In this document: piece after piece, positions 698 to 35,760 of the stretch
Position numbering within the stretch: position 1 is the stretch's first letter
How the letters are laid out: each line of letters starts with the position of its first letter
From: a virus
Lineage: Duplodnaviria > Heunggongvirae > Uroviricota > Caudoviricetes
Length of the DNA stretch: 41,046 bases
IMG/VR virus record: IMGVR_UViG_2529293060_000014
Reading direction: 5' to 3' (one strand)
Made by a program: the position numbers and the translations under genes
Notes under the pieces: model-generated
The model's database searches: none
The model's input: the letters and a program-made list of their open reading frames with translations, nothing else
Told to the model about the DNA's origin: nothing

Positions 698-1060
698 GGG
701 GCTGATTCTGGATTCGACGGGATTTGCGAAACCCAAGGTGCATGCCGAGGGGCGGTTGGCCTCGTAAAAAGCCGCAAAAAATAGTCGCAAACGACGAAAA
801 CTACGCTTTAGCAGCTTAATAACCTGCTTAGAGCCCTCTCTCCCTAGCCTCCGCTCTTAGGACGGGGATCAAGAGAGGTCAAACCCAAAAGAGATCGCGT
901 GGAAGCCCTGCCTGGGGTTGAAGCGTTAAAACTTAATCAGGCTAGTTTGTTAGTGGCGTGTCCGTCCGCAGCTGGCAAGCGAATGTAAAGACTGACTAAG
1001 CATGTAGTACCGAGGATGTAGGAATTTCGGACGCGGGTTCAACTCCCGCCAGCTCCACCA
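698..1060 (+). ncRNA. ssrA: tmRNA (transfer-messenger RNA), 363 nt
   Basis: Begins GGGGCTGATTCTGGATTCGACGGG and ends with the tRNA-like 3' arm GGTTCAACTCCCGCCAGCTCCACCA; length and sequence match E. coli ssrA from memory. Confidence 0.95.
1016..1060. repeat. attL core: 45-bp ssrA 3' end, first copy of direct repeat
   Basis: Identical 45-bp sequence ATGTAGGAATTTCGGACGCGGGTTCAACTCCCGCCAGCTCCACCA recurs at 35716-35760. Confidence 0.85.
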
Positions 1061-1071
1061 AATAAATCAAG

Positions 1072-1099
1072 GGGTTACGTGAAAGCGTAACCCTTTTTT
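1072..1099 (+). terminator. rho-independent terminator downstream of ssrA (prophage-derived side)
   Basis: Hairpin GGGTTACG-TGAAA-CGTAACCC followed by TTTTTT. Confidence 0.8.
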
Positions 1100-1183
1100 C
1101 TTTGGTAGTGGCGGCAAAATGGCGACAGACTTTTGCGTCCATCTTGCCTGTCGCCATCTTGAAATCATGCAAAGAGGTTTCAC

Positions 1184-1666
1184 ATGGAAGAACTTCACTT
1201 TGTTTACATCAATGCAAATGGTCGTATCGGTGTTCACTCTATACAGAGCATCAGTTATAGCGAAAATCATATACAGGGCATTTGTAAGAACACCGATCGA
1301 ATAAAAACCTTCCGAAAAGACCGCATTCTTAAACAGTACGATTCACCAGAACAAGCCATTCAGGAATGCGCGTCATTCCTCCCCGAAAGCTACTCACATC
1401 TCACTAAGCAGTCTGGTCCGAAAAAAAATACATTCGATGTGTGTTTCACCGGATTTAAGAAAGCAGATAAAGAAAGATTGGTTGATAAGGCGAATGAACA
1501 AGGATTAACGGTAAGAACCTCTGTAACCCAAAGCCTTCAGATGCTCTGTTGCGGTTACAATGCAGGCCCATCAAAAGTATCGGCAGCCAGGATGAAAGGC
1601 ACAATCATCATAGATGAGCCTGGCTTTATACATTTTCTTGAAACGGGTGAGATCCCAGATGAATAA
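1184..1666 (+). CDS. hypothetical prophage cargo protein with C-terminal BRCT-like domain
   Basis: 160-aa ORF with AAAGAGG Shine-Dalgarno 6 nt upstream of ATG; C-terminal ~75 aa (VCFTGFKKADKERLVDKANEQGLTVRTSVTQSL...GPSKVSAARMKGTIIIDEPGFIHFLETGE) follows the BRCT pattern of NAD-ligase C-termini; N-terminal ~80 aa unassigned. Confidence 0.6.
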   Translation: MEELHFVYINANGRIGVHSIQSISYSENHIQGICKNTDRIKTFRKDRILKQYDSPEQAIQECASFLPESYSHLTKQSGPKKNTFDVCFTGFKKADKERLVDKANEQGLTVRTSVTQSLQMLCCGYNAGPSKVSAARMKGTIIIDEPGFIHFLETGEIPDE

Positions 1667-1667
1667 A

Positions 1668-1694
1668 AACCTGCCGTAGCAGGTTCTCTTTCTC
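1668..1694. terminator. bidirectional hairpin terminator between convergent BRCT gene and ogr
   Basis: AACCTGC-CGTA-GCAGGTT stem-loop flanked by T-rich runs on both strands. Confidence 0.55.
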
Positions 1695-1911
1695 AAAAAT
1701 TCATATGCCCCTGACCACCTGGCAATGGATGTGGAGGAGCAGTAGCAATCAGTGCGGGTGTCACAATAAACCGGACCACTGTTTCATGAGTAACAAAAGT
1801 GCTCCCGCAGTTAATATTTTGGCACTGGCAGTAACGCTCTTTGGTGCTTTCAGTTACTTGAAAACTGCTCCTTGTGTGTGCCGCATGACCACACTTTGGA
1901 CAATTCATCAT
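1693..1911 (-). CDS. ogr: late-gene transcriptional activator, Ogr/Delta zinc-finger family
   Basis: Track ORF 1693-1956; probable start at internal MMNCPKCG (72 aa); CxxC...CxxxxC zinc finger and HPLP motif as in P2 Ogr; located after gene D as in P2. Confidence 0.8.
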   Translation of the reverse strand: MMNCPKCGHAAHTRSSFQVTESTKERYCQCQNINCGSTFVTHETVVRFIVTPALIATAPPHPLPGGQGHMNF

Positions 1912-1979
1912 ATCCAGATCCCTACCTTTGCTATCAGAATCATTGTAATGATACACAAAATATCAATATTGAGAACACT

Positions 1980-3080
1980 TTATTCCATTTCAAGATCATC
2001 AATCTTCACTTCGAGTTCAATACTGGTTGTAAAACCGTTATCCGGGCTGACGGTATGTGTCAGAGTCGTAATGGTCCATTCCGCATCATCTATCGGCTGT
2101 TTAAAACCACTGACCTTCACAGGCATTTCCGTGTAGAGATCTGCCCGCCCTTCTGCCAGTTGTAGCGAAAATGACGCAACGCCGCGTTGCAGGCGTTCCC
2201 ACTGCATTTTCGCCGCTCGTTCGGCGTTGCTCCGGTTGGCATAAGTGCGATTAAGTACCAGCACGTTTTCATCCGTACCCACCAGGTAATCGCCCTGCTT
2301 CGCTTCTGGCTCTTTCTTCTGCTTCTTAGTTCTGCGCTTACGCTTCACCGTGGTGCTTTCTTTCTTCGCAGGTTCGCGGGTATGCAACCAGCTGGCAATT
2401 ACGCCCGTGTAGGCTCCGCGATCTGCCAGGGTAAATCGGTGACTGTCGCCGTCCTTGCGTGTGATAGTGATCACTGGCAGAGGTTTACCAGTGGCGCTTT
2501 TGCCCTGCCCCTGCCTGATGAATAACAGATTGCCATTTTTCACCGACGCGATGGCACCGTACTGTCGCGCCAGCCGCATCAGAAAACTGCCGTCACTCTC
2601 ATTAGTCTGGTCTATATGCTCCACGGGCTTATCCGACAGGTCTTTACCCAGTGCCATCTTCAGCTTGTGCCGCACGGCTATTTCCTTCACCACTTCCCCG
2701 ACGGTGGTCTTATGCCACGATTTTTCACGGCGGGTATTCAGCGTTTCCCGAAAATCAGCACTTCGCGCCCGGATAGTCAGGCGGTCCGGTGCGCCAGTGT
2801 GTTCAATCTCGTCCACCGTGAATGCTCCTTTCGGGAAAAGCGGCTGCCCCTTCCAGCCCAGCGCCAGCGTAATGACAGCACCACGGCGCGGCAGCGCTAT
2901 TTTTCCATCGGCGTCGTCCAGCTCCAGATCAAGCTGGTCCGCTTCAAAGCCCCGGTTATCCGTCAGCGTCAGCCTCATCAGGCGGTTATCCAGCACAGTG
3001 GTGATATCCCTGCCCTCAATACTGATGCTGAATGCGGGAGTTTTGTTGCCTTTGTTAAGCAGTTCAGAGCTGAAATTCAC
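1980..3080 (-). CDS. D: tail protein D (late control / tail formation)
   Basis: 366-aa ORF in P2 gene order FI-FII-E-T-U-D-ogr; size and sequence character consistent with P2 gpD. Confidence 0.85.
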   Translation of the reverse strand: MNFSSELLNKGNKTPAFSISIEGRDITTVLDNRLMRLTLTDNRGFEADQLDLELDDADGKIALPRRGAVITLALGWKGQPLFPKGAFTVDEIEHTGAPDRLTIRARSADFRETLNTRREKSWHKTTVGEVVKEIAVRHKLKMALGKDLSDKPVEHIDQTNESDGSFLMRLARQYGAIASVKNGNLLFIRQGQGKSATGKPLPVITITRKDGDSHRFTLADRGAYTGVIASWLHTREPAKKESTTVKRKRRTKKQKKEPEAKQGDYLVGTDENVLVLNRTYANRSNAERAAKMQWERLQRGVASFSLQLAEGRADLYTEMPVKVSGFKQPIDDAEWTITTLTHTVSPDNGFTTSIELEVKIDDLEME

Positions 3081-3562
3081 GACAGCAGCCCTCCCACCGT
3101 TTTACCGATATCGCTTAAGGCAGACGTTGCCGTGTCCTGCAGATTATTCAGTTGCGTACTGAGATCACCGAACATATCGGACAGGGATTCATCCACCCGT
3201 TTGAGCGACAGGGTGAACTCAATCCGGCGCGGCATACCATCGCGGAAAAACTCCGTTTTAGTCTGATTTATTCCCTCAATCACATACATGCCGTAAATGG
3301 TGCCGCTGCCTTCAATCAGGGGCCATGCTTTCCCCTGTTCTGCCATCTGCTCCAGTGCCAGCAACGACAGCCTGCCACCTGTTATCTCCGGCATAAGAAC
3401 ACCGGAAAGCGTCAGCATGTCGTTGTCCGGCCCCAGAAACTGCGTGGACGGACGTCGGTTTACCCGGCTGTTTGCCGCATGTCGCCAGCTGCGTTGATAC
3501 TGCAGCTCCTGATACGGCACGGTGCGCAGCATAAACACGTACAATCCCAGCACCATCATCAT
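3077..3562 (-). CDS. U: tail protein U
   Basis: 161 aa; start/stop overlap with neighbours; position between T and D as in P2. Confidence 0.85.
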   Translation of the reverse strand: MMMVLGLYVFMLRTVPYQELQYQRSWRHAANSRVNRRPSTQFLGPDNDMLTLSGVLMPEITGGRLSLLALEQMAEQGKAWPLIEGSGTIYGMYVIEGINQTKTEFFRDGMPRRIEFTLSLKRVDESLSDMFGDLSTQLNNLQDTATSALSDIGKTVGGLLS

Positions 3563-6500
3563 GCGTCGTATCCCCCCTGATCGCTGTAGTTACTCCTGGC
3601 TTTTGCCTTCAGCCTGCGTTCACGTTCATCAAGCTGGCGGGCCACCTCCCGCGCAATATCCTGCGCACTTTGTCCTGGCTGCGTCTGGATGATGATCTGC
3701 GTCGGTGCCTCAATCCTGTAAACGGGCGGCACAGTGGCTGCGCGACTCACAATTGCTTCTCCACCTTTCGCGGGAAGTGCCAAAGGGTGCAACGGTGGAA
3801 GCTCTGCTGGCGCGGCAGCAACGCCCATCATTCCGGCGACAACCGCAGCCAGTGCAGCGGTATTTCTCCGGCTGGTCACGTTTGCCGGGCCGTTGACAAT
3901 TTCAGGCCCGTTTTCACCGACAATGCCAAACTGCCCGCGCGGGATATACCCGCCGCTGTCATACATCCCCGCAAAGCCATATCCCCATGATGGAAAACCA
4001 CCCGATGGTATCATCACTTTACCGTCTGCATTCACCGTCACAGGTTGCTGACGCGTCACGCTTTCCGGCAGTTTTGCCTTTGCGGCCTCTTTACTGACAA
4101 TGCCAAGTTTCTCCAGTAACCAGGAAACACCGGATTTCAGGGAGTCCAGCGGATGCATAACCATATTCAGCCCTTCCGCCAGTGCCTCCCCGAATCGTCG
4201 CCCCATTGCCGCTGCGCTCTGCAGTTCGGCAGAGGTCGACTTAACGGGCGTCAGCAGATCAGTAAACCAGCCCCACAGCGCCTGTACTTTATCGCCAATC
4301 CACTGAAATACAGGCTTAAGTGGTTCGAATGCTGCACTGACGGGACTAGCCGCCGCTTTGAATCCTTCCACCACGCCACCGAGAAATGCGTTGATGGGTT
4401 GCCAGTATTTCCAGACAACCAGTGCCACACCCGCCAGTGCAGTAACCACAAGACCTATCGGACTGAGCAGAGCACCTAACAGACCAGATATGGCATACAG
4501 GGCAACGCGCAGCATCGCCAGCGGACCGGATGCCAGTACTCGCAGCACCGCGCCTGCGGCAGCCAGTCCACCGCGTAGTGCTGCCAGTGGATTCATAAAC
4601 ATCACAACAACAGCACGTAAACCGGATAATCCAGACCGCAACAGTGCAACCGGCACACCTGCTACAGTTTTCAGGACATTCCCCGTCAGTGATGCCGTGC
4701 GGTGCAAAGACGACAACGGCGCAGTAAGTAAACCCGCTGCGTTGCCCGATGAAGCAAGCCCGCGTCGCAGCAGTGCCAGTGGAGCGCCAGCTAACCAAGA
4801 CAACGCTCTGCTGGTTCGTGTTACTGCTGCCGTAACGGAAGGTAACGTTTTGATACCCAGCACAGAGAATCCCAGACGGATGACTGCCAGCGGCCCCAGC
4901 ACTGCAGCCAGCGCCACCGCTAAGGTGCCGAGGCCTACGGTAACCGCAGCCACAACAGCCGCTACTTTCATCAGTGTGCCTGTCAGTTCCGGGTTAGCTT
5001 CCACCCAGCGGCGCAACGCCCCCGTGATGCTTTTCACCGTGTACAGAATATCCATCAGCGGCTGGCGCAGCGTTTCGCCCAGGCTGCTGAAGGTGTTCTG
5101 CGCTCCGGTTTTGACCAGCAACCACTGAGCAGAAAGTGAGTCTTTGTTGATGTCGGATTCTTTCTGCATGGAACCGAGCGCATCATTGCCCGCTGTCAGT
5201 TTTAGCTGGCGCTGCAGTTCCTGAAGGTTGTTTGCCAGTTTCGCCGCGTCATCACCAAACTCTTTACCAAACAACATGGTCATGGCAGACAGACGCTTGT
5301 CCTGCGGCAGTGCGTTCACCTTCTCCAGCACACGCTGGATAGTTCCCATCGCATCCTTCGTCATCTGCTTTTCAATCACTTCAGGATTGAGTTTCAGCAG
5401 ATTCATCCCTTCAAAGAAACTCTTGCTTTGCATGGTGGCAATGGACAATTCACGCACCATCGCGTTTGCTGCACTGGCTGCAACCTCCGGCGCAGCGCCC
5501 AGTGTCAGAAAGGTGGAACCCAGTGCCGCCGCTTTACGATAATCCAGACGGTCAGCCACACCGCCCAGACGTTGCATCACATCAATGATGTCCGCCCCTT
5601 TCGACATGGCGTTATCATCCAGATAGTTCAGCGCATCGCCGAGCTGTTCAATATTGCGGGTAGGTATTTTGTAGAGCTGGGCGATTTTCCCCAGACTTTC
5701 TGACAGTTCATCCGCTGGCAGCTCAAAGGCTGTTGCCGCCTTTGCTGCCGTACTGGCGAAGGCCAGCAGGTCACGTTTCTGGTCTTCCCAGCTGTCGTCA
5801 GGGTCTGCGACGTTCATGCGCGCACCACCTTCAACCAGTGCAGCGAAGTCCACCGCACCGTTTTCCATCGGCAACTGTTCGCTGGCAGCCTTGATGGCAT
5901 CCTGCATTTCATAAAAACGTGCAGTACGGTTTCCATTATCGTCACGCAGACCATTGACCTGCTTTGCCACACCTTTCATGGCATCTTCCATGCTGGTATA
6001 GCTTTTTACTGCCGCCATCACTGGCGTCCCCATTGCCAGCCCTGCAGCCGTGGTAGTGGCTCCGGCTCCTGCAATACGATCGCGCACCTCCAGCGAACGG
6101 GCATAACTGGCACGCGCCGCATTCATCCTGCGCTGAGCTTCACCCAGTCGCTTCAGCCGCGCCTCCTGTTTCGACAATTCCTGGTTATAACGTGATGTTT
6201 CACGGGCTAAACGGGCAGTTGCTCCCGCATCATCTTTCGCAGAAATTCCCGCCCGGTACAGTTCTGCACGCACAAGCGCCGTTTGCTTCTGCAAATATTT
6301 TTGTTGTTCTTCCAGGCGTTGGACTGCCAGCGTTTGCCGACCTAAAGCCACAAGGTGCCGTTGTGATGGTTGTTCCATCGCCTCCAGCTCAGAGCTAAGC
6401 AAATTAGCCTTCTGTCTGGCATAGTTCAGCCTGTCGCCTAACTTCTTGTTATCGGCCTGCAGCTTGCGAAATTTTTCCAGGCTGTTACCCGCCTGATTGA

Positions 6501-6636
6501 GTTGCTTTAATGCGTCACGGGAGTTTCTGATTGCACCAGCCAGCTCTTTCGAACTGGCCTGTGCAGCACGGAATGGGCGGGTGAGTTTGTCAACCGCATT
6601 AAGAATGACCTGCAGGCGCAGGTTGTTATCACTCAT
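3559..6636 (-). CDS. T: tail tape-measure protein
   Basis: 1025-aa ORF with coiled-coil N-terminus and Ala/Gly-rich hydrophobic repeats; follows E/E' as in P2-family tails. Confidence 0.9.
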   Translation of the reverse strand: MSDNNLRLQVILNAVDKLTRPFRAAQASSKELAGAIRNSRDALKQLNQAGNSLEKFRKLQADNKKLGDRLNYARQKANLLSSELEAMEQPSQRHLVALGRQTLAVQRLEEQQKYLQKQTALVRAELYRAGISAKDDAGATARLARETSRYNQELSKQEARLKRLGEAQRRMNAARASYARSLEVRDRIAGAGATTTAAGLAMGTPVMAAVKSYTSMEDAMKGVAKQVNGLRDDNGNRTARFYEMQDAIKAASEQLPMENGAVDFAALVEGGARMNVADPDDSWEDQKRDLLAFASTAAKAATAFELPADELSESLGKIAQLYKIPTRNIEQLGDALNYLDDNAMSKGADIIDVMQRLGGVADRLDYRKAAALGSTFLTLGAAPEVAASAANAMVRELSIATMQSKSFFEGMNLLKLNPEVIEKQMTKDAMGTIQRVLEKVNALPQDKRLSAMTMLFGKEFGDDAAKLANNLQELQRQLKLTAGNDALGSMQKESDINKDSLSAQWLLVKTGAQNTFSSLGETLRQPLMDILYTVKSITGALRRWVEANPELTGTLMKVAAVVAAVTVGLGTLAVALAAVLGPLAVIRLGFSVLGIKTLPSVTAAVTRTSRALSWLAGAPLALLRRGLASSGNAAGLLTAPLSSLHRTASLTGNVLKTVAGVPVALLRSGLSGLRAVVVMFMNPLAALRGGLAAAGAVLRVLASGPLAMLRVALYAISGLLGALLSPIGLVVTALAGVALVVWKYWQPINAFLGGVVEGFKAAASPVSAAFEPLKPVFQWIGDKVQALWGWFTDLLTPVKSTSAELQSAAAMGRRFGEALAEGLNMVMHPLDSLKSGVSWLLEKLGIVSKEAAKAKLPESVTRQQPVTVNADGKVMIPSGGFPSWGYGFAGMYDSGGYIPRGQFGIVGENGPEIVNGPANVTSRRNTAALAAVVAGMMGVAAAPAELPPLHPLALPAKGGEAIVSRAATVPPVYRIEAPTQIIIQTQPGQSAQDIAREVARQLDERERRLKAKARSNYSDQGGYDA

Positions 6637-7065
6637 CGTTGGCCCCGCTTCTCTGAATCGCTTTATACCGCCATTCCAGCACTTCGGTCAGCGGCATAAC
6701 GTCAGTAACGGATGGCGGCCAGTGAAAAATGGTGGCGATATCTGCCACCAGATCGTCAACCGTCAGGCTGTCGGTAAACCGGCAAGCACCGACTTCTTCA
6801 ACAAAAAAGTGACAACCTCAACCGACATGGCTGTGAGATCTGCCGGGTCCATCTCTGCGATTTCCTGTGCAGTCAGTGCCGGACTGGAGATGCGGGGGAT
6901 CACGGTCATCATCGCGTTCACATCCATATCCATAATGGCCTGCAGGCGTGTGCCGCGCAGCGCACCAGACTGCGGTTTACGCAACACAATTTCGGTAATT
7001 TCTGTTTTACCGCGCATGATGGGGGTATCCAGTTGAATGGTCTTTTCAGTCTGTTTATCGCTCAT
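6629..7065 (-). CDS. E+E' fusion produced by programmed -1 frameshift (inferred)
   Basis: After slippage at TTTTTTG (minus strand, plus-strand 6802-6808) the -1 frame stays open (VEEVGACRFTDSL...RSGANDE) and ends at a TGA overlapping the T start codon (ATGAGTGA); same logic as P2 E/E'. Confidence 0.6.
6763..7065 (-). CDS. E: tail assembly chaperone E
   Basis: 100-aa ORF upstream of T; contains the slippery heptamer T-TTT-TTG near its 3' end. Confidence 0.8.
   Translation of the reverse strand: MSDKQTEKTIQLDTPIMRGKTEITEIVLRKPQSGALRGTRLQAIMDMDVNAMMTVIPRISSPALTAQEIAEMDPADLTAMSVEVVTFLLKKSVLAGLPTA
6802..6808 (-). other. -1 ribosomal frameshift slippery site TTTTTTG
   Basis: Plus-strand CAAAAAA in the ACT-TTT-TTG codons of E. 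Confidence 0.6.
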
Positions 7066-7119
7066 TTTGTTGTCCTGTAAATTAGGTTCTGGCGCGGCAT
7101 TCCGCGCCGTTCAGATACA

Positions 7120-7635
7120 TCAGAGGCCGAGGGCGTTGCGGTGCGCTTCCATCAGGTCCACACCGTCCACAATTTCCACCATGTTGATAAGGTCCACTTC
7201 ATAGAGCACCTCACCATTGATGGTCAGCTTCGCGTAGCTGTTGGTACTGGTCACTTTGGTGGTGTTGCTTTCGCCCGTCTTCCACTCGCCGGAATCCACT
7301 TCTTTGTGACGTCCACGCACGACAAGCTCCACGGCCTGCACTTCCCCGGTATCGTCACGCTGGATAGAGCCGGTAAAGCGCAGCTGGATGCCATCCACCG
7401 TGGATTTGCCCATCTGCTTAAACAGCAGCAGTTCAGTACCACCAATGGAAAATTCTGTATCCAGTGCACTGTCATCCAGTCCCAGATCCACATCCACCGC
7501 CCCCGGCATACCGCCGCCGCGATACTTCTCATATTTGCGGGTGAATTTCGGCAGCGTCAGCGACTCAACGATCCCCTGCCAGTTGTTCCCGTCGTTAAAC
7601 AGGTTCAGATGTTTTAATTTGCGTGGTAAAGCCAT
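7120..7635 (-). CDS. FII: tail tube protein
   Basis: 171 aa, directly downstream of the sheath gene; P2 FII is about the same size. Confidence 0.85.
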   Translation of the reverse strand: MALPRKLKHLNLFNDGNNWQGIVESLTLPKFTRKYEKYRGGGMPGAVDVDLGLDDSALDTEFSIGGTELLLFKQMGKSTVDGIQLRFTGSIQRDDTGEVQAVELVVRGRHKEVDSGEWKTGESNTTKVTSTNSYAKLTINGEVLYEVDLINMVEIVDGVDLMEAHRNALGL

Positions 7636-7644
7636 GTTGTCCCC

Positions 7645-8817
7645 TTACGCGCTGACCTGGCTGGCGAAATTCACCAGGTACTGATCGGTGATGCGCTGGC
7701 GCAGCATCAGATTTTCAAGTGGCGGCATTGGCGTGTAGTCATAGTCGATGGTGAGTTTTCCGGCTTTCAGCGTGTCTTTGTCGTTCACCGACTCATCCAG
7801 CCAGCAATCACCACCAATGAGATACCCCTGACTGACCAGGCTGCGCATTTTGGCGCGGATACCTTCGATAATGTCGCGGGCCAGCGACGGGTTAAGCGGT
7901 TTATCCACCGCCCACATGTGTGCTTCTGCCATCGTGTCCATCAGCACCTGCGCCGTGCGGGTGTAGTTTTCGAAGGCAAAGAGCGGGTCATCACTCAGGC
8001 AGCGGGAACCCCAGAAGCGGAAACCGTCTTTACGCACAAGCGTGGTGACGTCGTTCTGGTTCAGCAGACCTGCATCGGTTGCCGGGTCCTGCAGATCCCA
8101 GAACACATCAGCAGAAATTCCGGTGACACCGTTCACGCCCACGTTGGACAGGCTTTTGTGCCATCCAGTCTGCTCATCAATTTTGGCGCGCAGACCGAGC
8201 GCACGAGCGGTGGCATATGCCGTTGCTTCGGCATTCAGCACCGTGTCCCAGCCAGTAAAGTCAGGCCAGATCAGCATCCCTTCGCGCTGGCTGAAGTTTT
8301 CGCGGTAAGTGATCGCCTCCTGCACTGTCTTGCAGCCATACGCTGACAGGTAAGCAAACCCACGCAGGCTTTGCGCCACGCTCAGCAACTCAGTAGCTAC
8401 CGCCTTGGTGTCGTGGCCTGGCACGCCGAGAATGCGCGGTTTAACGCCGAGCTGTGACTGGGCAGATAACAGGGCTTTCATACCTGTTTTTTTACCTTCA
8501 GCAGTCACTGCGCCGATGATATTGGTCGTGGTTTCTTCTTCCGTTTCACCCTGCGGCACACGCACAACAACGGTCACGGGTTTTGCCTGGTCAGCGATGG
8601 CATCCAGCGAGCGGGCCAGTGTGCCGGACTCACCCGCTTTACCGCTGGCAGTCAGCACATCAGTGATCAGCACGGGTTTATTAAGAGGAAACATTTTTGC
8701 ATCGGCATCATCGCCCGTGCAGACCATACCCACGATGGCGGTGCTCACCGTGGTAATAGATCGGGTGCCTTCGTTGACTTCAACAACGCGCACCCCGTGG
8801 TGGTAATCCTGAGCCAT
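7645..8817 (-). CDS. FI: contractile tail sheath protein
   Basis: 390 aa, first gene of the F operon; P2 FI is about the same size. Confidence 0.9.
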
Positions 8818-8893
8818 AGTGGCGAACCTCCTGATTGGATTAGGCTTCGCCCTATGTTGAAGTGATTGTGCCTGACAAACAGCTAAGCGCAGT

Positions 8894-8911
8894 TGTACCG
8901 TTATTCATACA
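8894..8911 (-). promoter_or_regulatory. candidate Ogr-type late-promoter activator site (TGT-N12-ACA) for the FI operon
   Basis: TGTACCGTTATTCATACA centred about 86 bp upstream of the FI start codon; same spacing as the site upstream of O. Confidence 0.4.
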
Positions 8912-8959
8912 AAATGACGGTATTTGTCTGCTTGCAGGGATAATCAACATAATGCTGAT

Positions 8960-9532
8960 TCAGGGGGATTCATTGCTCTTATTTGCCGGAAATTTTCTAT
9001 AAATTGTGGAAACACCTACATCAAAAATCAGTGCAATACGCTGTCTTGATTCTCCGGCCTCGAGTAAACGTCCAATCTGTGCCCACTGTTCGGTGGTCAA
9101 CTTAGGACGGCGTCCACCTACTCTGCCTTTGGCGCGAGCTGCAGCAAGCCCCGCCCTGGTACGTTCAACTATCAGTTCGCGCTCCATTTCAGCCAGGGCA
9201 CCCATGACATGAAAAAAGAAACGGCCCATTGGGGTACTGGTATCAATACTGTCAGTCAGGCTTCGGAAATTCACGCCACGCTGGCGCAGCTCTTCTATCA
9301 GCGTAACGAGATGCCGCATACTGCGCCCCAACCTGTCCAGCTTCCAGACAACCAGAGTGTCACCTGCCGATAATGTCCTGAGCAGTTTTTTCAGTCCCGG
9401 TCTGTCGGACTTAGTGCCACTGATTTTGTCCTCAAAAATCCGCTCACATCCCGCGCAGTTCAGCGCACTACGTTGCAAATCGGTGTTCTGGTCATTTGTT
9501 GACACGCGTACATAGCCAATAAGCATGATCAA
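8960..9532 (-). CDS. site-specific DNA invertase, serine recombinase of Hin/Gin/Cin/Pin family
   Basis: 190 aa; N-terminal YVRVSTNDQ catalytic-serine motif, resolvase core and C-terminal HTH (GVSTIYRKF). Confidence 0.9.
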   Translation of the reverse strand: MIMLIGYVRVSTNDQNTDLQRSALNCAGCERIFEDKISGTKSDRPGLKKLLRTLSAGDTLVVWKLDRLGRSMRHLVTLIEELRQRGVNFRSLTDSIDTSTPMGRFFFHVMGALAEMERELIVERTRAGLAAARAKGRVGGRRPKLTTEQWAQIGRLLEAGESRQRIALIFDVGVSTIYRKFPANKSNESP

Positions 9533-9581
9533 TCCCCTGAATAAAAACCGGGGATGATGCCAGTTAGCCGTTATCTCTGCA

Positions 9582-9607
9582 TTTTCATAAACGTTGGTTT
9601 GGGAGAA
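9582..9607. repeat. candidate invertase crossover site (gix/hix-like), invertase-proximal
   Basis: TTTTCATAAACGTTGGTTTGGGAGAA, imperfect 26-bp dyad; right half resembles the GGTTTTGGATAA half-site of gix/hix as recalled; shares an 11-of-13 core with the site inside H. Confidence 0.45.
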
Positions 9608-9937
9608 GCCAGATATGTCATTCAGCGAGGAGCTAATGCCAATGGTGCATGGATACGCTGGTCAGATGGTGCAATAGAAGTATTTGGAACCGGTGGATCT
9701 AATGATAATGGACTGGCTAAAGTTGTTTACCCAATTGCACTGCCTAAACTTTCACGTTTTATCAGTATCGCGGAAAGAATAAGAACGGATTACGAGAGCA
9801 CACCTAATAATGTTCACGTTTCAATGATCGTGGATGATCAGGTAACAAATACCGGCTTTTATGCCCGCTGCCAGATGTACGACGGCAGACCATCATCAAA
9901 TGCTTTTTCCTGGAGGGTTTATTGTGCGCCTGTTTAA
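9590..9937 (+). CDS. alternative (currently silent) tail-fibre C-terminal cassette
   Basis: Open frame from the crossover core (VGLGEARYVIQRGANANG...) with no credible start of its own; would be fused to the constant part of H after inversion. Confidence 0.5.
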   Translation, partial: NVGLGEARYVIQRGANANGAWIRWSDGAIEVFGTGGSNDNGLAKVVYPIALPKLSRFISIAERIRTDYESTPNNVHVSMIVDDQVTNTGFYARCQMYDGRPSSNAFSWRVYCAPV

Positions 9938-16804: not shown

Positions 16805-16807
16805 AAT

Positions 16808-18221: not shown

Positions 18222-18224
18222 GGA

Positions 18225-26141: not shown

Positions 26142-26183
26142 CTTTCCTCCTATGACACCACACGCAACACTGTATGTATAACC

Positions 26184-26202: not shown

Positions 26203-26294
26203 TATAATAATCTTACTGATGTAAAACGTTTTTTTACGTTCATCAGCCTGATATGCCTGGTATTATTAAGAGCACGAATTGTTAACCCGCGTAA

Positions 26295-28709: not shown

Positions 28710-29563
28710 GCACGCACTCCGTACACGGCGGAACAATCCACGCCACGCGAAGGATCAAATCCTATCCAGCAGCGCGGCCCGGCAACAGCAATGATTTCTG
28801 TTGCAGATTTACTCTCACCAGCTGCCACGCCGATGCTGCGTTTTGCCTTGATGTAGTGGTGAGTAAAATTGCGATACAGCGAACGGATCAGGGATGTGTC
28901 ACTGTTAGAAATAATGACCGGATATCCTTCTGATGACCGATGTTCAAGAACGGATGCCAGGTGATACTGGTCATCTTCAGTGAAACCATCAGTGTGATAG
29001 CCGGAAAACGTACCGTCATAAGGCGGATCGCAATACACCACATCCCCCGCGTGCAACATCGCCAGCGTTTCATCGAAGCTGGCGCAGATAAACGTTGCCC
29101 GCTGGGCTTTTACTGCAAATGCACGAATTTCTTTTTCAGGAAAATACGGATTTTTATAATTACCGTAGGGAATGTTGAAATGCCCGCTCTTGTTATAGCG
29201 ACATAAACCACGGTAACCGTGACGATTGAGATACAGGAAATATATCGCTTTCATGAAATCAGTAATTTCAGTTGAGTAATTAAACTCCTGCCTTATGTTG
29301 TAATAATCCATCTCCCTGTTTGCGTTCTCAAATAAAACTCTGGCGCGAGATATAAACGATTCACAATCAGCGGCAACCTTTTTATAGAGGTTGATTAAAT
29401 CAGGATTAATATCCGCAACCAGATAGCTGGGATAATCCGTCTCCATCATCACAGCACAGGAACCCGCGAAAGGTTCAACCAGTCGCGGGCCAGCAGGAAG
29501 ATGTTTTTTCAGTTCGGACATTATGGCAGTTTTATTTCCCGCCCATTTCAGGATGGTGCTCAT
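28706..29563 (-). CDS. dam: DNA adenine methyltransferase (Dam, GATC-specific family)
   Basis: Start at [11 protein letters not shown] (ATGA overlap with upstream stop); colinear with E. coli Dam: LKWAGGK, EPFxGxG SAM motif, LYLNR.GY.GLCRYN, DPPY catalytic motif. Confidence 0.9.
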
Positions 29564-29787
29564 ACAGCACCTCCGTTGTAATGTTTGCCTTTCAGCTCTG
29601 CGATTTCCTGACAGGTAATGCAAAGCTGCACACCCGGAATGGCACGGCGGCGTGCTGGCGGAATTGGCGCTTCACACTCAATGCAAAGCACGCGGGACAC
29701 GCCCGGCGTTTTGGCACGGGCAGCACGGATATGGCGTTGGCGTTCTTCTTCAACGCGCTGCTGTACGAGATCCATTGCATCAGCCAT
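29560..29787 (-). CDS. TraR/DksA-family C4 zinc-finger protein
   Basis: 75 aa with CIEC...CITC. Confidence 0.7.
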   Translation of the reverse strand: MADAMDLVQQRVEEERQRHIRAARAKTPGVSRVLCIECEAPIPPARRRAIPGVQLCITCQEIAELKGKHYNGGAV

Positions 29788-30026
29788 TAGTGGATCTCCT
29801 GCGCTTCGTTCTGGATTGCTTCAGCAGTCACACGAAGCAGTTCTGCCGCTTCCACGTGGTTTAGCTGGCGGGATGAGATATGAAACGCCAGGCTATCAAG
29901 GCGAGCTGCCATTGCTTCAGCCCTTGCCCGGCGTTCTTCCAGACGAGCCTCTGTCAGTAAAATATTAAGCCCTGCGTCAGCCGGTCCGGTTTTGGTCGAG
30001 AGGGTTTCAATATTACGCATAATCAA
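29787..30026 (-). CDS. hypothetical early-region protein
   Basis: 79 aa; start/stop contiguous with neighbours in the early operon. Confidence 0.5.
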   Translation of the reverse strand: MIMRNIETLSTKTGPADAGLNILLTEARLEERRARAEAMAARLDSLAFHISSRQLNHVEAAELLRVTAEAIQNEAQEIH

Positions 30027-30087
30027 TTCTCCTGAATTTAGATAAAGGGATGCCCGGCGGGTTTACGCCATTAATTTCATTAGTTGG

Positions 30088-30429
30088 TTAATTCGGCATG
30101 GTTAGCCGTCTGGGAAATAAGCTCACCACTGCACGAAAATGATTCATTGCTTTAATCAACTCCCGCTTTTCGTCAGTGGTCAGCTCATTAATGCTGATGC
30201 TATGACGTTCAGCTGGAATTTTTGCCATAAAGAATATGGCAGCCAGTGCCCGTTTATTTTGTTCGCTATTAATATCGCGTGGATCACGCATATCTTTAAT
30301 AAACCGTTCAAGCTCTGACTCAATATTCAGACCAAAAACTTTCGCCCTTAACTCCGCAATGTGATTAAGTCCATTCAGGCGTTCACCGGGGCCTAATGGA
30401 ACAGTCGCCGCAGCGCCATTAATTGCCAT
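30088..30429 (-). CDS. hypothetical early-region protein
   Basis: 113-aa ORF in the operon downstream of cII. Confidence 0.5.
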   Translation of the reverse strand: MAINGAAATVPLGPGERLNGLNHIAELRAKVFGLNIESELERFIKDMRDPRDINSEQNKRALAAIFFMAKIPAERHSISINELTTDEKRELIKAMNHFRAVVSLFPRRLTMPN

Positions 30430-30451
30430 AATTCATATTCCCAAAACGCAA

Positions 30452-30676
30452 CTATCGCTCTTTGTTCTTACGGTAACGCTCAAGAGGAGATATATTTTTT
30501 CGTATCATCTCTTTAACCTGCTCTCCCCGTAAAAACGTCCCATCCTTTAGCGTGAAAAAGTAACTGCCATCGCCCGACAACGACGGATAACAACAGAGCA
30601 AATCATCTTCAGATACTGAATAACTCTCCCCTCTGTAACGAAACTGATAAACCACTTCACTTTCCGCTGCATACAT
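30452..30676 (-). CDS. hypothetical early-region protein
   Basis: 74 aa with GGAG SD about 8 nt upstream of ATG; overlaps the frame of the preceding ORF. Confidence 0.45.
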   Translation of the reverse strand: MYAAESEVVYQFRYRGESYSVSEDDLLCCYPSLSGDGSYFFTLKDGTFLRGEQVKEMIRKNISPLERYRKNKER

Positions 30677-30843
30677 TTTGACTTTCTCCGTTTCCCCGTG
30701 GTCAATTCAGACAGCAATTCATCTTGTGAACGGCACGGATGCCAGCGTTTACCATCCTCACCCATGATCCAGCCGTGACCGTAGTGCATTGCCGGGCTTT
30801 GTTTTACCAGCAGCGATGCAAATGATGGTTCTTTCGTCAGCAT
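30547..30843 (-). CDS. hypothetical early-region protein (possibly the Fil/Dhr position of 186)
   Basis: Track ORF 30547-30873; likely start MLTKEPSF 8 bp after the cII stop; 3' part overlaps the next ORF in another frame, so the extent is uncertain. Confidence 0.4.
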   Translation of the reverse strand: MLTKEPSFASLLVKQSPAMHYGHGWIMGEDGKRWHPCRSQDELLSELTTGKRRKSKCMQRKVKWFISFVTEGRVIQYLKMICSVVIRRCRAMAVTFSR

Positions 30844-30850
30844 AAGCACC

Positions 30851-31360
30851 TCACAGCAAACCGAATGAAGCACCGAGGCCAGTCACGGTATCAACTGCAC
30901 TCGCCATCGCAGGATTAGCCTGTAAACGGGCCTGCAATGAAACAGCAGCCAGCGCCATCAGTCGTGTTACAGAGTTAATGCTGCTGATAGCATCACGACG
31001 ACCTGCACTGGTTTTTACATCGCCAGATACCGCACCTGCAGCAACACGCCCGATCTCTGCGGTTGCACTCATGACGTAATGTGGCAGTTTCTCTTTTGCC
31101 ACCTCATTAATCGGTACACATGGCAGACAATGAATCTGTGCCAGAAAACCATCTATCAGCGTTGAGTCTTCTGTCAGATCGGTAAGCAGCCAGATTTCTG
31201 GCGCATTGAGCTGATGCGGTTGATCTGGGTTGAGTTTGTTTCGCAGTGTCTGAACATTCATTCCTGCACGTTCTGCCAGCTTCGCCATATTGTGACGTAG
31301 TGCAAAAGCTCTACAGGCTTCATCAAAATACGGATGTTTGGAAATCTTGTAATCAAACAT
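30851..31360 (-). CDS. cII: CII-like lysogeny establishment activator (186 CII family)
   Basis: 169 aa, the size of 186 CII, and similar to it as recalled (…RHNMAKLAERAGMNVQTLRNKLNP…LLTDLTEDSTL.DGFLAQIHCLPCVP…); position after apl. Confidence 0.75.
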   Translation of the reverse strand: MFDYKISKHPYFDEACRAFALRHNMAKLAERAGMNVQTLRNKLNPDQPHQLNAPEIWLLTDLTEDSTLIDGFLAQIHCLPCVPINEVAKEKLPHYVMSATAEIGRVAAGAVSGDVKTSAGRRDAISSINSVTRLMALAAVSLQARLQANPAMASAVDTVTGLGASFGLL

Positions 31361-31392
31361 GCTGCCCCCTTAGAAAGTTCCCATAATTGAAC

Positions 31393-31635
31393 TTACTTAC
31401 CAACAATGACGCGGAAGTTGGAATGTCCGAGGGATTCACGGACCTGATCAGTTTTGTACATCAGATAACGCAGACTTACGCGGCCTTTGTTTTTTTCTTT
31501 CTTGACCATGTACTTAGCAAGTTGACCATGGTGAATTTTTTGGTAAACAGAGCCGCGGGAAATGCCCTCCCACTCTGCGAACTCAGCAGGTGTTGCCATC
31601 TCTTTTGGTACACGAATTGAAATATCAGTACTCAT
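31393..31635 (-). CDS. apl: Apl/Cox-like excisionase and lysogenic-promoter repressor
   Basis: 80 aa with helix-turn-helix (ATPAEFAEWEGISRGSVYQKI); first gene of the lytic operon facing cI. Confidence 0.6.
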   Translation of the reverse strand: MSTDISIRVPKEMATPAEFAEWEGISRGSVYQKIHHGQLAKYMVKKEKNKGRVSLRYLMYKTDQVRESLGHSNFRVIVGK

Positions 31636-31756: not shown

Positions 31757-32389
31757 ATGTTAAACATCAGAATGGGTTCCGATACGGGAGGTAAAGCAGC
31801 TATTGAGAGGCTGCTTGCGGCTTATGGATTCACAACTAAGCAGGCATTAAGTGAGCACCTGAATGTCTCAAAAAGCACTATGGCAAACAGAGTGTTACGT
31901 GACAGCTTTCCTGCTGACTGGATAATTCAGTGCGCACTAGAAACCGGTGTTTCGTTGCTTTGGTTAGCTACAGGACAGGGAAGCATGAAAGCAGGATCTG
32001 AGACTGAAAAAAGATCTCACAATGAGAACAAACAAGCAATTAAACCGTTATCTAAACTCATAACTCCATCTATTCCTAAAGGAACCTTGGAGAATGGACA
32101 ACTCAGTATTGATGAAGAGATTTTCCTAGACCACAGCATATTACCTGCAAATTATGAAGAATCGATGTTCTTAGAAACCCCTACTGATTGTTATCTCATC
32201 GATAAATCAGTTAAACAAGTCAGCAATGGATTCTGGCTTATCAATATTGATGGAATGATTATTATTGCAAAAATTATGCGGATTCCCGGCAATAAGATTG
32301 TAGTAAATCAAGATGAAGCGTCTTTCGAGTGCTCTGCTGATGATGTGGAAGTTATTGGGCGTGCAGTCAAAGTAATAAAGAGTATCTAA
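31757..32389 (+). CDS. cI: CI immunity repressor (186 CI family)
   Basis: 210 aa; N-terminal HTH; ...CALETG..L.WL.TG.G motif and C-terminal domain resembling 186 CI as recalled. Confidence 0.8.
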   Translation: MLNIRMGSDTGGKAAIERLLAAYGFTTKQALSEHLNVSKSTMANRVLRDSFPADWIIQCALETGVSLLWLATGQGSMKAGSETEKRSHNENKQAIKPLSKLITPSIPKGTLENGQLSIDEEIFLDHSILPANYEESMFLETPTDCYLIDKSVKQVSNGFWLINIDGMIIIAKIMRIPGNKIVVNQDEASFECSADDVEVIGRAVKVIKSI

Positions 32390-32391: not shown

Positions 32392-33408
32392 ATGACTGTC
32401 AGAAAACAGCCAAACGGCAAATGGTTGTGTGAGTGCTATCCCAATGGACGCAATGGCAAGCGCGTGCGTAAGCAATTTGCTACGAAAGGAGAAGCCATTG
32501 CTTTTGAAAGCTTCACAATGGAAGAAGTGAATAAAAAACCGTGGCTAGGTGAAAAGGATGATCGGCGACGCCTATCAGAATTAATTGAGCTTTGGTATTC
32601 CCTGTATGGCCAGACACTCGCAGACCCCAAGCGCCTCATGGCGAAACTTAGAATTATCTGTAATGGTCTAGGCGACCCCATCGCCTCAGAACTGACAGCC
32701 GGTGACTTTACAAAATACCGCGAAGCACGGTTAAAAGGCGACGTTCGTAACGAAGACGGCACACTAATGTCGCCAGTAAAACCACGCACGGTGAATCTTG
32801 AGCAACGTAACCTATCATCGGTTTTCGGCACATTGAAAAAACTAGGCCACTGGTCAGCACCAAATCCTCTCGCCGGGCTGCCAACATTTAAAATCGCTGA
32901 GGGGGAACTGGCGTTCCTGACCTCGGAAGAAATTAAACGTCTGCTAGATGCCTGCGCTGATTCTCAAAACCCCAGTCTGCTTTTGATTGCAAAAATATGC
33001 CTGGCCACCGGCGCACGCTGGAGTGAAGCCGAAAACCTGCAGGGCCATCAGTTATCTAAATACCGCATCACTTATACCAAGACGAAGGGCAAGAAAAACC
33101 GCACCGTGCCGATATCTCAAGATCTGTATGACGAACTCCCCAAGAACAGAGGGAAGCTATTCACCCCGTGCAGAAAAGCCTTTGAACGGGCAGTAAAGCG
33201 AGCTGGCATCGAGCTGCCAGAGGGCCAATGCACTCACGTGCTACGTCATACATTCGCCAGTCATTTTATGATGAATGGCGGAAACATACTGGTCCTACGC
33301 GATATTCTGGGCCATGCCGATATAAAAATGACGATGATTTACGCCCACTTTTCGCCGGATCATCTTGAAGATGCAGTTACTAAAAACCCTTTATGCAACT
33401 TAAGATAG
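32392..33408 (+). CDS. int: tyrosine integrase (P2/186 type)
   Basis: 338 aa; C-terminal HVLRHTFASHFMMNGGNILVLRDILGHADIKMTMIYAHF (R-H-R-Y catalytic box); directly downstream of cI. Confidence 0.9.
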   Translation: MTVRKQPNGKWLCECYPNGRNGKRVRKQFATKGEAIAFESFTMEEVNKKPWLGEKDDRRRLSELIELWYSLYGQTLADPKRLMAKLRIICNGLGDPIASELTAGDFTKYREARLKGDVRNEDGTLMSPVKPRTVNLEQRNLSSVFGTLKKLGHWSAPNPLAGLPTFKIAEGELAFLTSEEIKRLLDACADSQNPSLLLIAKICLATGARWSEAENLQGHQLSKYRITYTKTKGKKNRTVPISQDLYDELPKNRGKLFTPCRKAFERAVKRAGIELPEGQCTHVLRHTFASHFMMNGGNILVLRDILGHADIKMTMIYAHFSPDHLEDAVTKNPLCNLR

Positions 33409-33786
33409 AGTAACTTATGAAAATAAACTCAAATTATTTACAAATATAATATTCAGCAGGTTATCCATTCTTATTTAACTCTTCAGACTGAGATTAGATT
33501 TTATTTATAGAATAAGATAATTTCATATCACAAAAAACCTGTAAGCCCTCATCTTTGTTGTATAAAAACATAAAAGACGCCATATTCAAAAAAGTCGAAA
33601 AGCATTGCAATGCAACATTAAAAATAAGCCAATAAAAACCAGTCATTAGAAAATGAAAAAAAACAAAAACATTTTTTATCAAAGCTTCAGTCTGACTACT
33701 AGTTTGACTCTGCAATTAACTATCAAGATGATCAATATTTATTGATCATCTTGAAGTTGCCCTCAGGAAAGATGAGTATAATATTT

Positions 33787-35523
33787 CTACTCAAGAAGAT
33801 ATTCTAACTCATCTTTTATCGGGATAACTTGCTCATAAAGTCGGTGATATGACTTCCCAATTGCGCCTCTGAATTGTATTAACTTTGGTGGCTTGTTACC
33901 TATATTAATAATATGGTCTTGAGCTATACCTGGGTAGGGATCAATAAATACAATTTCAGATATACCTAACTGATAAGCTTTTTTCGCACACAGCTCACAG
34001 GGACTGGCAGTTGTATATAACCTCCCCCCCTGAACGCCAATGCCACCATATTTTGCAAGTTGTAAAAATGCGTTTTCCTCAGCATGTAATGCACGTGTAT
34101 GAACTTGATTACCTTTTTTATCTTTATCAAGATCATTATGTATATCTTTAAAACAATAAGATAAGTTCCTGCCTCTATAAATATCACCAGTTTTATCTAT
34201 CGCCCTAAAATTTAATAGTTTCTCATTAGCTTTAATTCTGAAAGAACTATTATTTCTCTCATAATAACTGTACACTTTTTCATCAAAGTCGTTCATTAGG
34301 CCATCTAGCGATCTCATAGAGCAAGGAATCTGACCGTTGGCGACATCATTCCAACCCACTGATTTTATTGAATTTTCACCATCAGTTACTACAGCTCCCA
34401 CCTGTCTAGATATACAACCAGAGTTTAATTTTACCGTATACGCAACTTGCATAACCCTTTCCATTGCAGTAGGTGTTATCAGACCAGGATGCTTCATCAG
34501 TGCGATGTACCACGCTAATTGTGCTTTTAAAATATTGTCATTATCAAATTCATTTTTTGGGTTAAAAATGTGTATATCTGATAGTTCAATGCATTTAGTT
34601 ACATTTGGATTAGTGAGATGTTTGTAAGAGTTATCACCTTTACCTGACTCTACAGAATCTATTTCCTCTATCTGCTTTTCAGAAAACTTATGTAGTTTCC
34701 GCAAATAGTTTGTTCGATGTTCATCTGGGGCATTTATTGACATTAAATGAAATGCAGAATATCTATCCTTAAAAAATTTTGCTTCATATGGATTTCTAAT
34801 AGCATCTATGACAATTAATGCGTTATCTCTTTTGCTTTTTCTTATTAATTTAATAACCCTATTAATAGTTTCCGGCAAATGAAAAACAGATTTAGGTATA
34901 AACTCTTTATCTTCAAAATCGACTTCAATACGCCCACGGCGTCTAATTGACTTACCTGCTAACTGATAGACTGAAACATATAAATTTGAGTTTATCGCAT
35001 TTAGTTCAGCTTTGAATTCCTTAGTAAATTTTCTAACTAACCTCAAAATTGATATAAATTTATTAATCGTTTTTTCATTAAGCTTCAATTCACTATTATG
35101 ATCAAGCAAATTCTCAATTACATTTTTAAATCTTGTTAAAATGAGATTATCTGAAAATACACCAAAAGTTAATACATTATCTAAATGCTCTTTACTGATA
35201 GATTTATTAGATGATAGAATAAACTCAGAAGCTTCTTCAACTGTTAACATCAAAAGATACGCTGAGATTAGGTCACTCACCTTAATTGAGTAAAAATTTT
35301 CCCAGTGATTTTCTGCGAATTTTTTAACTATATTATAACGATGGACATCCAATCCCTTGTAAAAACCCTGTAATTTACTTACATCAGGGAAGACTGTTTT
35401 TTCGTTTTCAAGAATATTAGCTGTTGTTGTGCAACCAGAACCAGTTCGACCTGTCAAACCGACTAAAATAAACTGCCCATTTTCAAGGAAAAGCTCACTA
35501 ACGAATTTTTTTTCTTTCATCAC
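33787..35523 (-). CDS. P-loop NTPase/kinase + cytidine (dCMP/dCTP) deaminase fusion protein, AvcD / anti-phage dCTP-deaminase-like
   Basis: 578 aa; N-terminal Walker-A-like GLTGRTGSGCTTT (Cys in the usual Lys position); C-terminal zinc-deaminase signature HAEENA...SPCELCAKKA; about 30% GC, unlike the phage core. Confidence 0.6.
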   Translation of the reverse strand: MMKEKKFVSELFLENGQFILVGLTGRTGSGCTTTANILENEKTVFPDVSKLQGFYKGLDVHRYNIVKKFAENHWENFYSIKVSDLISAYLLMLTVEEASEFILSSNKSISKEHLDNVLTFGVFSDNLILTRFKNVIENLLDHNSELKLNEKTINKFISILRLVRKFTKEFKAELNAINSNLYVSVYQLAGKSIRRRGRIEVDFEDKEFIPKSVFHLPETINRVIKLIRKSKRDNALIVIDAIRNPYEAKFFKDRYSAFHLMSINAPDEHRTNYLRKLHKFSEKQIEEIDSVESGKGDNSYKHLTNPNVTKCIELSDIHIFNPKNEFDNDNILKAQLAWYIALMKHPGLITPTAMERVMQVAYTVKLNSGCISRQVGAVVTDGENSIKSVGWNDVANGQIPCSMRSLDGLMNDFDEKVYSYYERNNSSFRIKANEKLLNFRAIDKTGDIYRGRNLSYCFKDIHNDLDKDKKGNQVHTRALHAEENAFLQLAKYGGIGVQGGRLYTTASPCELCAKKAYQLGISEIVFIDPYPGIAQDHIINIGNKPPKLIQFRGAIGKSYHRLYEQVIPIKDELEYLLE

Positions 35524-35715
35524 GTCCCACTTATGAATGTAAGAATATTCAACATATTAATTATAATTTATTAACTCATTTTGTTCTAGATACTTGATGT
35601 AATGGCGGCACTTTGGCGACGGAGCATTAAAAACGCGTAAGACGAGCAAATACAACAAAACACTAACACATTGTTTTTAAATATAAATAGCTGTTTTTAC
35701 TATACTAAAAATGGT

Positions 35716-35760
35716 ATGTAGGAATTTCGGACGCGGGTTCAACTCCCGCCAGCTCCACCA
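35716..35760. repeat. attR core: second copy of the 45-bp ssrA 3' end
   Basis: Identical to 1016-1060; the upstream tmRNA body is absent, so this is a displaced 3' fragment. Confidence 0.85.

Follow-up and report, generated by a model that had tools for sequence, protein, structure and literature searches.

Two Integrative Elements in Series at ssrA

At the 3′ end of the Escherichia coli transfer-messenger RNA (tmRNA) gene ssrA, the 41,046-nt stretch of DNA recorded as IMGVR_UViG_2529293060_000014 (called the window below, meaning that stretch in its entirety) very probably carries two independent integrative elements in series: an older, decayed island and a newer, intact P2-like phage lying between the island and ssrA. 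A sequence-only reading of the window had proposed that an exact 45-bp repeat of the tmRNA 3′ end brackets a P2/186-like prophage of about 34.7 kb, and that this phage had entered an ssrA site already holding an intA-type island. The repeat and the prophage are confirmed here, and comparison with 5,426 complete E. coli genomes, the set searched for all counts of site states, junctions and island copies given below, points to the same order of arrival. The earlier description of the terminator behind the second copy and of the island that follows it required revision.

The window opens with the chromosomal gene smpB (1..483, plus strand), an open reading frame (ORF) standing in the same place relative to ssrA as annotated smpB in related genomes. 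It is followed by an intact ssrA (698..1060, plus strand), for which tmRNA calls were made with ARAGORN, giving the tag ANDENYALAA, and with Rfam, where family RF00023 matched at full length (model positions 1–374, 295.8 bits). The gene is identical to K-12 ssrA at 363 of 363 positions. Its terminal 45-mer, ATGTAGGAATTTCGGACGCGGGTTCAACTCCCGCCAGCTCCACCA, occurs exactly twice in the window, at 1016..1060 and 35716..35760, on the same strand, with 0 mismatches and a start-to-start distance of 34,700 bp. No third copy of the ssrA site, nor a partial copy of at least 12 nt, was found in the window, and when the significance of the repeat was tested against shuffled sequence, 0 of 100 shuffles reproduced it. 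Because the bases flanking the two copies differ on both sides, the block of identity is exactly 45 bp.

The first copy is the attL core (1016..1060, plus strand). It forms the 3′ end of ssrA and is identical to the annotated attP core of Fels-2, the classical P2-like phage at ssrA; the last 45 nt of the gene now come from the attL of the prophage. The second copy is the attR core (35716..35760, plus strand), a displaced 45-bp 3′ fragment of ssrA; strains C2 and 120899 have this fragment ahead of the same island as well. The arrangement has the signature that Islander uses to delimit integrated elements, namely an intact target gene, a displaced 3′ fragment of it downstream in the same orientation, and, close to one end of the interval, a tyrosine integrase gene (here 2.3 kb from attR).

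The interval between the two copies is a complete P2-like prophage of the Fels-2 type. Protein families were assigned with Pfam, PHROG, NCBIfam and PADLOC, and the first two of these recovered both the P2 late set (portal, terminase, capsid, sheath, tube, tape measure, U, D, and ogr) and a 186-type CI/Apl/CII switch. The phage tyrosine integrase, Int, is encoded at 32392..33408 (plus strand; Pfam Int_N and Phage_integrase) and has Fels-2-type specificity, sharing 92.9% identity with Int of Fels-2, 93.5% with that of the free phage Cartapus, and 100% with that of the prophage in strain KK19-02.

Reconstruction of attP

The attP region was reconstructed by joining 33409..35760 to 1061..1700 in silico and aligning the product to Cartapus (OV696611). 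The joined segments 35595..35760 and 1061..1700 are colinear with the Cartapus attP region, at 94.7% identity over 808 bp, and since the joined ends reproduce that region colinearly, the predicted excision junction is in all probability real. The reconstructed site has free-form counterparts in both the Cartapus attP and the annotated attP of Fels-2, which is a further element of the Islander definition. The sequence-only reading had predicted that the phage attP would be flanked by a deaminase gene on one side and a BRCT gene on the other, and the match to the two phages supports the prediction. The record “Escherichia phage 500465-1” was also considered as a free-phage attP reference and was rejected, as it is a chromosomal fragment that includes smpB and ssrA; Cartapus and Fels-2 were used.

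Both arms of the site are conserved: the P arm (35595..35715, plus strand) in Cartapus and Fels-2, and the P′ arm (1061..1134, plus strand) in Cartapus, Fels-2, RE2010, and SopEPhi. Directly 3′ of ssrA, a terminator scan detected a strong hairpin with a T run (1069..1096, plus strand), so that the prophage supplies a terminator as well as a 3′ end to the tmRNA gene. The 18-nt sequence TGGCGGC-N4-TGGCGAC is found only twice in the 41-kb window (0.04 occurrences expected), with one copy per arm (35603..35620 and 1109..1126). Both copies are kept in Cartapus and Fels-2, and an inverted half-site of the motif lies at 1150..1156. We consider the two copies to be candidate arm-type binding sites for Int.

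The Island Behind the Prophage

Beyond the second 45-bp copy, positions 35761..39819 are 100% identical to the sequence that lies directly 3′ of intact ssrA in strain A11, which carries the island only; 559 of the 5,426 genomes contain the island region. The scan placed a second terminator, again a hairpin with a T run, at 35797..35828 (plus strand). An identical terminator is found in A11, and homologous ones mark the left ends of two other islands, CP4-57 in K-12 and a distinct P4-type island in FDAARGOS_1250. Genomes with an empty site, of which there are 1,389, lack it behind ssrA, and KK19-02, a strain with the phage alone, lacks it behind attR and has there a different sequence that leads to ypjA. 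The sequence-only reading had taken this to be the original chromosomal terminator, retained by the second copy. That part of the reading fails: because the terminator is homologous to that of CP4-57 and missing from island-free strains, it is island-borne rather than chromosomal, and it presumably served ssrA before the phage came.

The island integrase is encoded at 35884..37155 (plus strand; start placed at 35926 by the Prokaryotic Genome Annotation Pipeline, PGAP) and contains the Pfam domains Arm-DNA-bind_3, Phage_int_M, and Phage_integrase. It scores 440 bits against the NCBIfam model NF007246 (cut-off 434) and is 48% identical to K-12 IntA. The earlier description of a P4/CP4-57-type integrase island thus holds for the P4-type integrase, as judged from its domains and NCBIfam match, but the element is not CP4-57 itself, and the window contains only a 4-kb remnant of the island, cut by an insertion sequence of the IS3 type.

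The cargo of this remnant (37194..39819) comprises a 138-aa hypothetical gene on the plus strand, a 582-aa Response_reg_2 protein (PF19192; 37683..39449, minus strand), and the 3′ fragment of a HEF_HK histidine-kinase gene (PF19191 plus HATPase_c; 39433..39819, minus strand) that is full-length in A11. The kinase and the Response_reg_2 protein form a two-gene pair, with a full-length copy at locus L001 (7434..11392), and the pair is found beside a P4-type integrase in 559 genomes. A PADLOC search of the island cargo returned no family. The pair may be an uncharacterized conflict system.

From 39820 to the end of the window (39820..41046, plus strand) the sequence is that of an IS3 copy, recognized by the IS3 end TGATCTTACCCAGC at 39820 and by a rve-family orfB. 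It interrupts the kinase gene at 39819/39820, and homology with other copies of the island stops at 39819. The right end of the island was inspected in three full-length copies, those of A11, C2, and PV16-126. All three have the same junction between IS3 and a truncated ygaQ, with ypjA through ileY missing, with or without a prophage ahead of the island. In these strains the IS3 lies 150 bp past the intact kinase gene, in the opposite orientation and beside the truncated ygaQ; the configuration in the window suggests that IS3 has mediated an additional rearrangement in this strain.

A displaced ssrA fragment belonging to the island (at least 12 nt) was looked for in the window, which ends inside IS3, in the complete island locus of A11, and in the related loci inspected, and none was found. 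Of the features expected from a member of a tandem array, the island therefore has its own integrase and lacks its own ssrA fragment. Lacking a displaced fragment and ending on the right in a fixed IS3/ygaQ′ deletion junction, the island appears to be an immobile remnant that has become fixed in the lineage.

Site States and Order of Arrival

Four states of the ssrA site were found in the population: empty, island only, phage only, and stacks of phage and island. In A11, as noted above, ssrA directly abuts the island. In KK19-02 the same phage as in the window (99.8% identical) sits at ssrA, with ypjA downstream instead of the island. Among the stacks, C2 and 120899 have related P2-like prophages ahead of the same island, and FDAARGOS_1250 has the same deaminase-carrying phage on a different P4-type island. 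This phage is thus seen in three downstream contexts, those of KK19-02, FDAARGOS_1250, and the window; its presence in different chromosomal surroundings is indirect evidence that it may be inducible and form virions.

Two of the stacks have peculiarities of their own. In E. coli O103:H2 PV16-126 (locus L009, 6974..7000), an unrelated prophage with a different integrase lies ahead of the same island, and the displaced ssrA fragment is 27 bp rather than 45 bp, consistent with another integrase subfamily and another crossover position within ssrA. In FDAARGOS_1250 (locus L006, 614..962), the deaminase phage is internally deleted, the CII gene being joined to part of a lysis gene, while the prophage ends and the deaminase gene are kept; it is a decaying copy that has retained its defense gene.

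From the comparative data we infer that the island is an old, immobilized occupant of the site and the phage a recent arrival, in agreement with the order that the sequence-only reading had proposed. The sequence from 35761 onward matches that of strains with the island alone, is accompanied by no displaced fragment, and in those strains runs to the same IS3/ygaQ′ end. An element that lacks its right end, and in front of which different newcomers sit, is unlikely to be a recent arrival itself. Some points weigh against this order. The map alone also fits integration of the island into the ssrA fragment at the phage attR. The exact phage–island junction of the window, running from the deaminase gene through attR into the island, is absent at full identity from the 5,426 genomes, where the six full-length matches are 78–89% identical and involve other island alleles, so the order is read from sister configurations and not from the strain's own ancestors. 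In addition, the right end of the island lies beyond the window, which ends inside IS3, and this IS3 is inside the kinase gene, in an orientation opposite to that of the common configuration.

The symmetry of the map with respect to order is what gives the reverse sequence of events its appeal, with the phage arriving first and a P4-type island integrating later into the 45-bp fragment at attR. The K-12 record places the start of CP4-57 at the final ∼15 nt of ssrA, and since these are part of the 45-bp fragment, a P4-type integrase could in principle use it. We nevertheless consider the reverse order very unlikely, given that the island has no displaced fragment and has the same IS3/ygaQ′ end behind no prophage, a P2-like prophage, or an unrelated one, which implies that it was already immobile. 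The island region is also found in 559 genomes vs. 20 for the phage, and the phage occurs in three different downstream contexts. The adjoining position of the two elements, both encoding tyrosine integrases aimed at ssrA, could further suggest a single composite mobile unit extending from ssrA to a distant fragment, with the internal 45-bp copy as a relic. Such a unit is extremely improbable: each element is found without the other (in A11 and KK19-02), the attP sites of Cartapus and Fels-2 close exactly at the two 45-bp copies, and neither the window nor the related loci examined contain an outer fragment. Two separate elements, the phage inserted between ssrA and an island already in place, best account for these configurations.

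Cargo Genes at the Prophage Ends

The region between int and attP (33409..35594, minus strand) is a 2.2-kb cargo slot with a GC content of 31.5% that holds an anti-phage deoxycytidine triphosphate (dCTP) deaminase module. The deaminase gene itself (33787..35523, minus strand) encodes 578 aa and is matched by the NCBIfam equivalog NF041025 (422.5 bits, cut-off 400) and by the PADLOC dCTPase model (E = 8e-145). Its dCMP_cyt_deam_1 domain lies at residues 354–526, which is the C-terminal position expected of the AvcD/DCD family (∼550 aa), and a PDB sequence search with the protein gave matches only to the catalytic deoxycytidine monophosphate (dCMP) deaminase core. By these family matches, the right-hand gene is most probably a known anti-phage dCTP deaminase of the AvcD/DCD family. 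Deaminases of the AvcD type are under the control of a small RNA, AvcI. The Rfam scan of the window returned no family besides tmRNA, although an AvcI-like RNA was not searched for specifically. The module also contains AT-rich non-coding DNA, 378 bp downstream of the deaminase gene (33409..33786) and 72 bp upstream of it (35524..35594). The dCTP deaminase family lowers deoxycytidine (dC) nucleotides once phage infection stops host transcription (PMC10511110).

The deaminase module is present in 20 of the 5,426 genomes and is joined to a P2-type int in all 20. A related int is present in 121 other genomes, and in these homology ends at or within ∼50 bp of the int stop codon; homology with other phages likewise ends at this stop codon and picks up again at 35595. 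The slot is occupied by two hypothetical genes in C2 and by single hypothetical genes in AR_0017 and 120899. Taken as a whole, these comparisons indicate that the int–attP interval is a variable cargo position. Acquisition of the int-side cargo from a neighboring island by aberrant excision was considered and rejected, since the conserved P arm (35595..35715) separates the cargo from the core.

On the other side of attP, the slot between attP and ogr holds a 160-aa accessory gene with a BRCT domain (1184..1666, plus strand; GC content 42.7%). The Pfam BRCT match has an E-value of 0.0011 and is under the gathering score, and the match to PHROG 2561 (function unknown) is full-length (E = 2.5e-77). 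AlphaFold2, run on the single sequence, gave an unusable model, with a mean predicted local distance difference test (pLDDT) score of 44. The gene is 98% identical in Cartapus, and Yersinia phage MLG42 contains homologous DNA at 73.5% identity. The junction between ssrA and the BRCT gene occurs in 165 genomes, and in every listed match for this junction ogr comes next after the BRCT gene.

The sequence-only reading had placed these two genes at the ends of the phage, where both ORFs are indeed found, and had allowed that either would be a separate element if it occurred at ssrA without a P2-like prophage. A separate origin might be suspected from the low GC content of the two genes relative to the ∼50–55% of the phage backbone, and from Fels-2, which has neither of them. 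No such independent occurrence emerged, however: the deaminase gene lies inside the attP P arm and next to a P2-type int in every genome that has it, and the BRCT gene lies inside the P′ arm, is carried by a free phage, has homologous DNA in MLG42, and is followed by ogr in each of the listed matches. There is thus only a very slight chance that the deaminase gene, the BRCT gene, or both constitute a small element at ssrA distinct from the phage, and the two are better described as probable exchangeable cargo inside the phage.

A broader proposal, which we offer as speculation and think rather unlikely, is that both attP flanks of Fels-2-type phages are exchangeable slots, and that for this reason accessory genes are found at both extreme ends of the prophage. 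The BRCT protein, encoded just downstream of the strongly transcribed ssrA, might then be a defense or anti-defense factor expressed in the lysogen, its expression tied to the integrated state.

PADLOC identified a further defense system in the slot between the portal and replication genes (the tin/old position), where a ShosA/ShosT (Shosta) pair occupies 23099..24635 on the minus strand. The two genes, ShosT (24066..24635, E = 2.7e-18) and ShosA (23099..24076, E = 2.6e-70), are on the same strand and overlap, and their GC content is 39% vs. ∼55% in the neighboring late genes.

Other Features of the Prophage

Next to the BRCT gene lies the ogr/delta-like late-gene activator (1693..1956, minus strand; Pfam Ogr_Delta, E = 1.5e-20), followed by the P2-type late region (1980..23073) with genes for D, U, tape measure, tail tube, sheath, tail fiber and its assembly, baseplate, lysis, capsid, terminase, and portal (PHROG E-values from 1e-69 to 1e-212). 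This region is ∼96% identical, over 92–96% coverage, to E. coli and Klebsiella records of P2-like prophages and phages. It includes a tail-fiber inversion module (8960..11173), consisting of a Din-family DNA invertase (8960..9532, minus strand; phrog_125, E = 5e-101) and an invertible segment of ∼1.6 kb between inverted repeats of 27 nt (9582..9608 and 11147..11173). Within this segment are an ORF for an alternative fiber tip (9554..9937, plus strand), a fiber-assembly gene, and the 3′ end of the fiber gene. The module would act as a tail-fiber host-range switch.

The early leftward operon (26295..31635, minus strand) encodes, by PHROG assignment, replication endonuclease A, a Dam methylase, several small proteins, CII, and an Apl/Cox-like excisionase (31393..31635, minus strand), in agreement with the PGAP annotation of the same phage in KK19-02. 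A 186-type CI repressor gene (31757..32389, plus strand; Pfam Phage_CI_repr and Phage_CI_C) lies between the excisionase gene and int. Between ShosT and the replication gene, the interval 24700..26294 contains several small ORFs without assigned function that may be further cargo; one of them (25124..25549, plus strand) matches phrog_7437, of unknown function, and another (25565..25960, plus strand) matches no family.

Proposed History of the Locus

The present arrangement most probably arose as follows. An island with a P4-type integrase would have entered the 3′ end of ssrA, bringing its own copy of the terminal nucleotides and its own terminator. An IS3-associated deletion would then have removed the right end of the island together with its displaced ssrA fragment, fixing the element in the lineage. 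The phage attP carries the last 45 bp of ssrA, and Int would have recombined it with the intact ssrA ahead of the island. At attL, the chromosomal 5′ part of ssrA would thereby have been joined to a phage-borne 3′ end and the phage terminator; at attR, the displaced 45-bp fragment would have stayed attached to the terminator and integrase gene of the island. Together, Int and the Apl/Cox-like excisionase should be able to excise a circle of 34.7 kb, leaving an intact ssrA rejoined to the island. Because the two cores are identical and both the int and the excisionase genes are full-length ORFs, this excision should be precise and leave the tmRNA unchanged.

Seen this way, the locus is a clean case, delimited in full, of the accumulation of mobile elements at ssrA: a newcomer inserts between ssrA and the earlier occupant, each comes with a 3′ end and a terminator of its own, and older elements degenerate where they are. 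Its importance beyond annotation is small. For the cataloguing of defense islands it may be of use as a single E. coli prophage with two recognized defense systems, the dCTP deaminase and Shosta, and a variable slot adjacent to attP.

Comparison With Known Systems

Most of the components described here have precedents. Stacking at ssrA and defense cargo in the int–att position have both been described before, as have the dCTP deaminase and Shosta, and public genomes already contain annotated copies of this phage. What is particular to the window is the occurrence of this phage on this island with an IS3 inside the kinase gene, a combination absent from the 5,426 complete genomes. A survey of E. 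coli defense islands lists the tmRNA locus as its hotspot #9, with prophages, satellites, and other elements in it (PMC10121019). The ShosTA pair occupies the classical slot between the replication gene and portal, as in the defense hotspots of P2-like phages (Rousset 2022; preprint 10.64898/2026.02.27.708500), from which we see no substantive difference; a term search found no mention of ssrA, dCTP deaminase, or the like in Rousset 2022.

Among phages, the closest parallels are Fels-2 and Cartapus. Fels-2 of Salmonella Typhimurium LT2 (Felsduovirus, Peduoviridae) has a closely similar Int, the same attP core (the 45 bp plus AA), conserved P and P′ arms with TGGCGGC-N4-TGGCGRC motifs, and the same order of cII, apl, cI, int, attP, ogr, and D. 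It differs in its host, Salmonella rather than E. coli, and in its empty slots: the int–attP and attP–ogr intervals measure 117 and 115 bp in Fels-2, whereas here they contain the 2.2-kb deaminase module and the 0.55-kb BRCT gene. Cartapus (Elveevirus), a free P2-like phage, shares the attP region, the BRCT gene, and Int at the identities given above, but its int–attP slot holds a 401-aa gene annotated with a RES domain, on the opposite strand, instead of the deaminase gene.

Regeneration of the target, a displaced fragment, and tandem arrays are established features of integration at tDNAs, with the tmRNA gene as the most enriched target (Islander, PMC4383910). The window resembles such arrays in its regenerated ssrA, in the displaced 3′ fragment that marks the end of the phage, and in the arrangement of the elements in series. 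It differs in that array members require a fragment apiece; as the island has lost the one it had, only the phage is formally delimited.

With CP4-57, the intA island of K-12, the island in the window shares a P4-type integrase of the same NCBIfam family, encoded just downstream of ssrA, and a homologous terminator after the ssrA 3′ end. The two integrases are only 48% identical, however, and the cargo of CP4-57 (alpA, yfjH, and others) is replaced by the HEF_HK kinase and Response_reg_2 pair in an island that has no right end. With neither an intA orthologue nor the gene content of CP4-57, it would be grouped with that element at the level of the integrase family only. Excision also sets the two loci apart. 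In K-12, excision of CP4-57 deletes T357 and inactivates tmRNA (PMC10107115). Excision of the phage described here would instead restore an identical 3′ end, and the practical prediction is that, unlike the loss of CP4-57, it should spare tmRNA.

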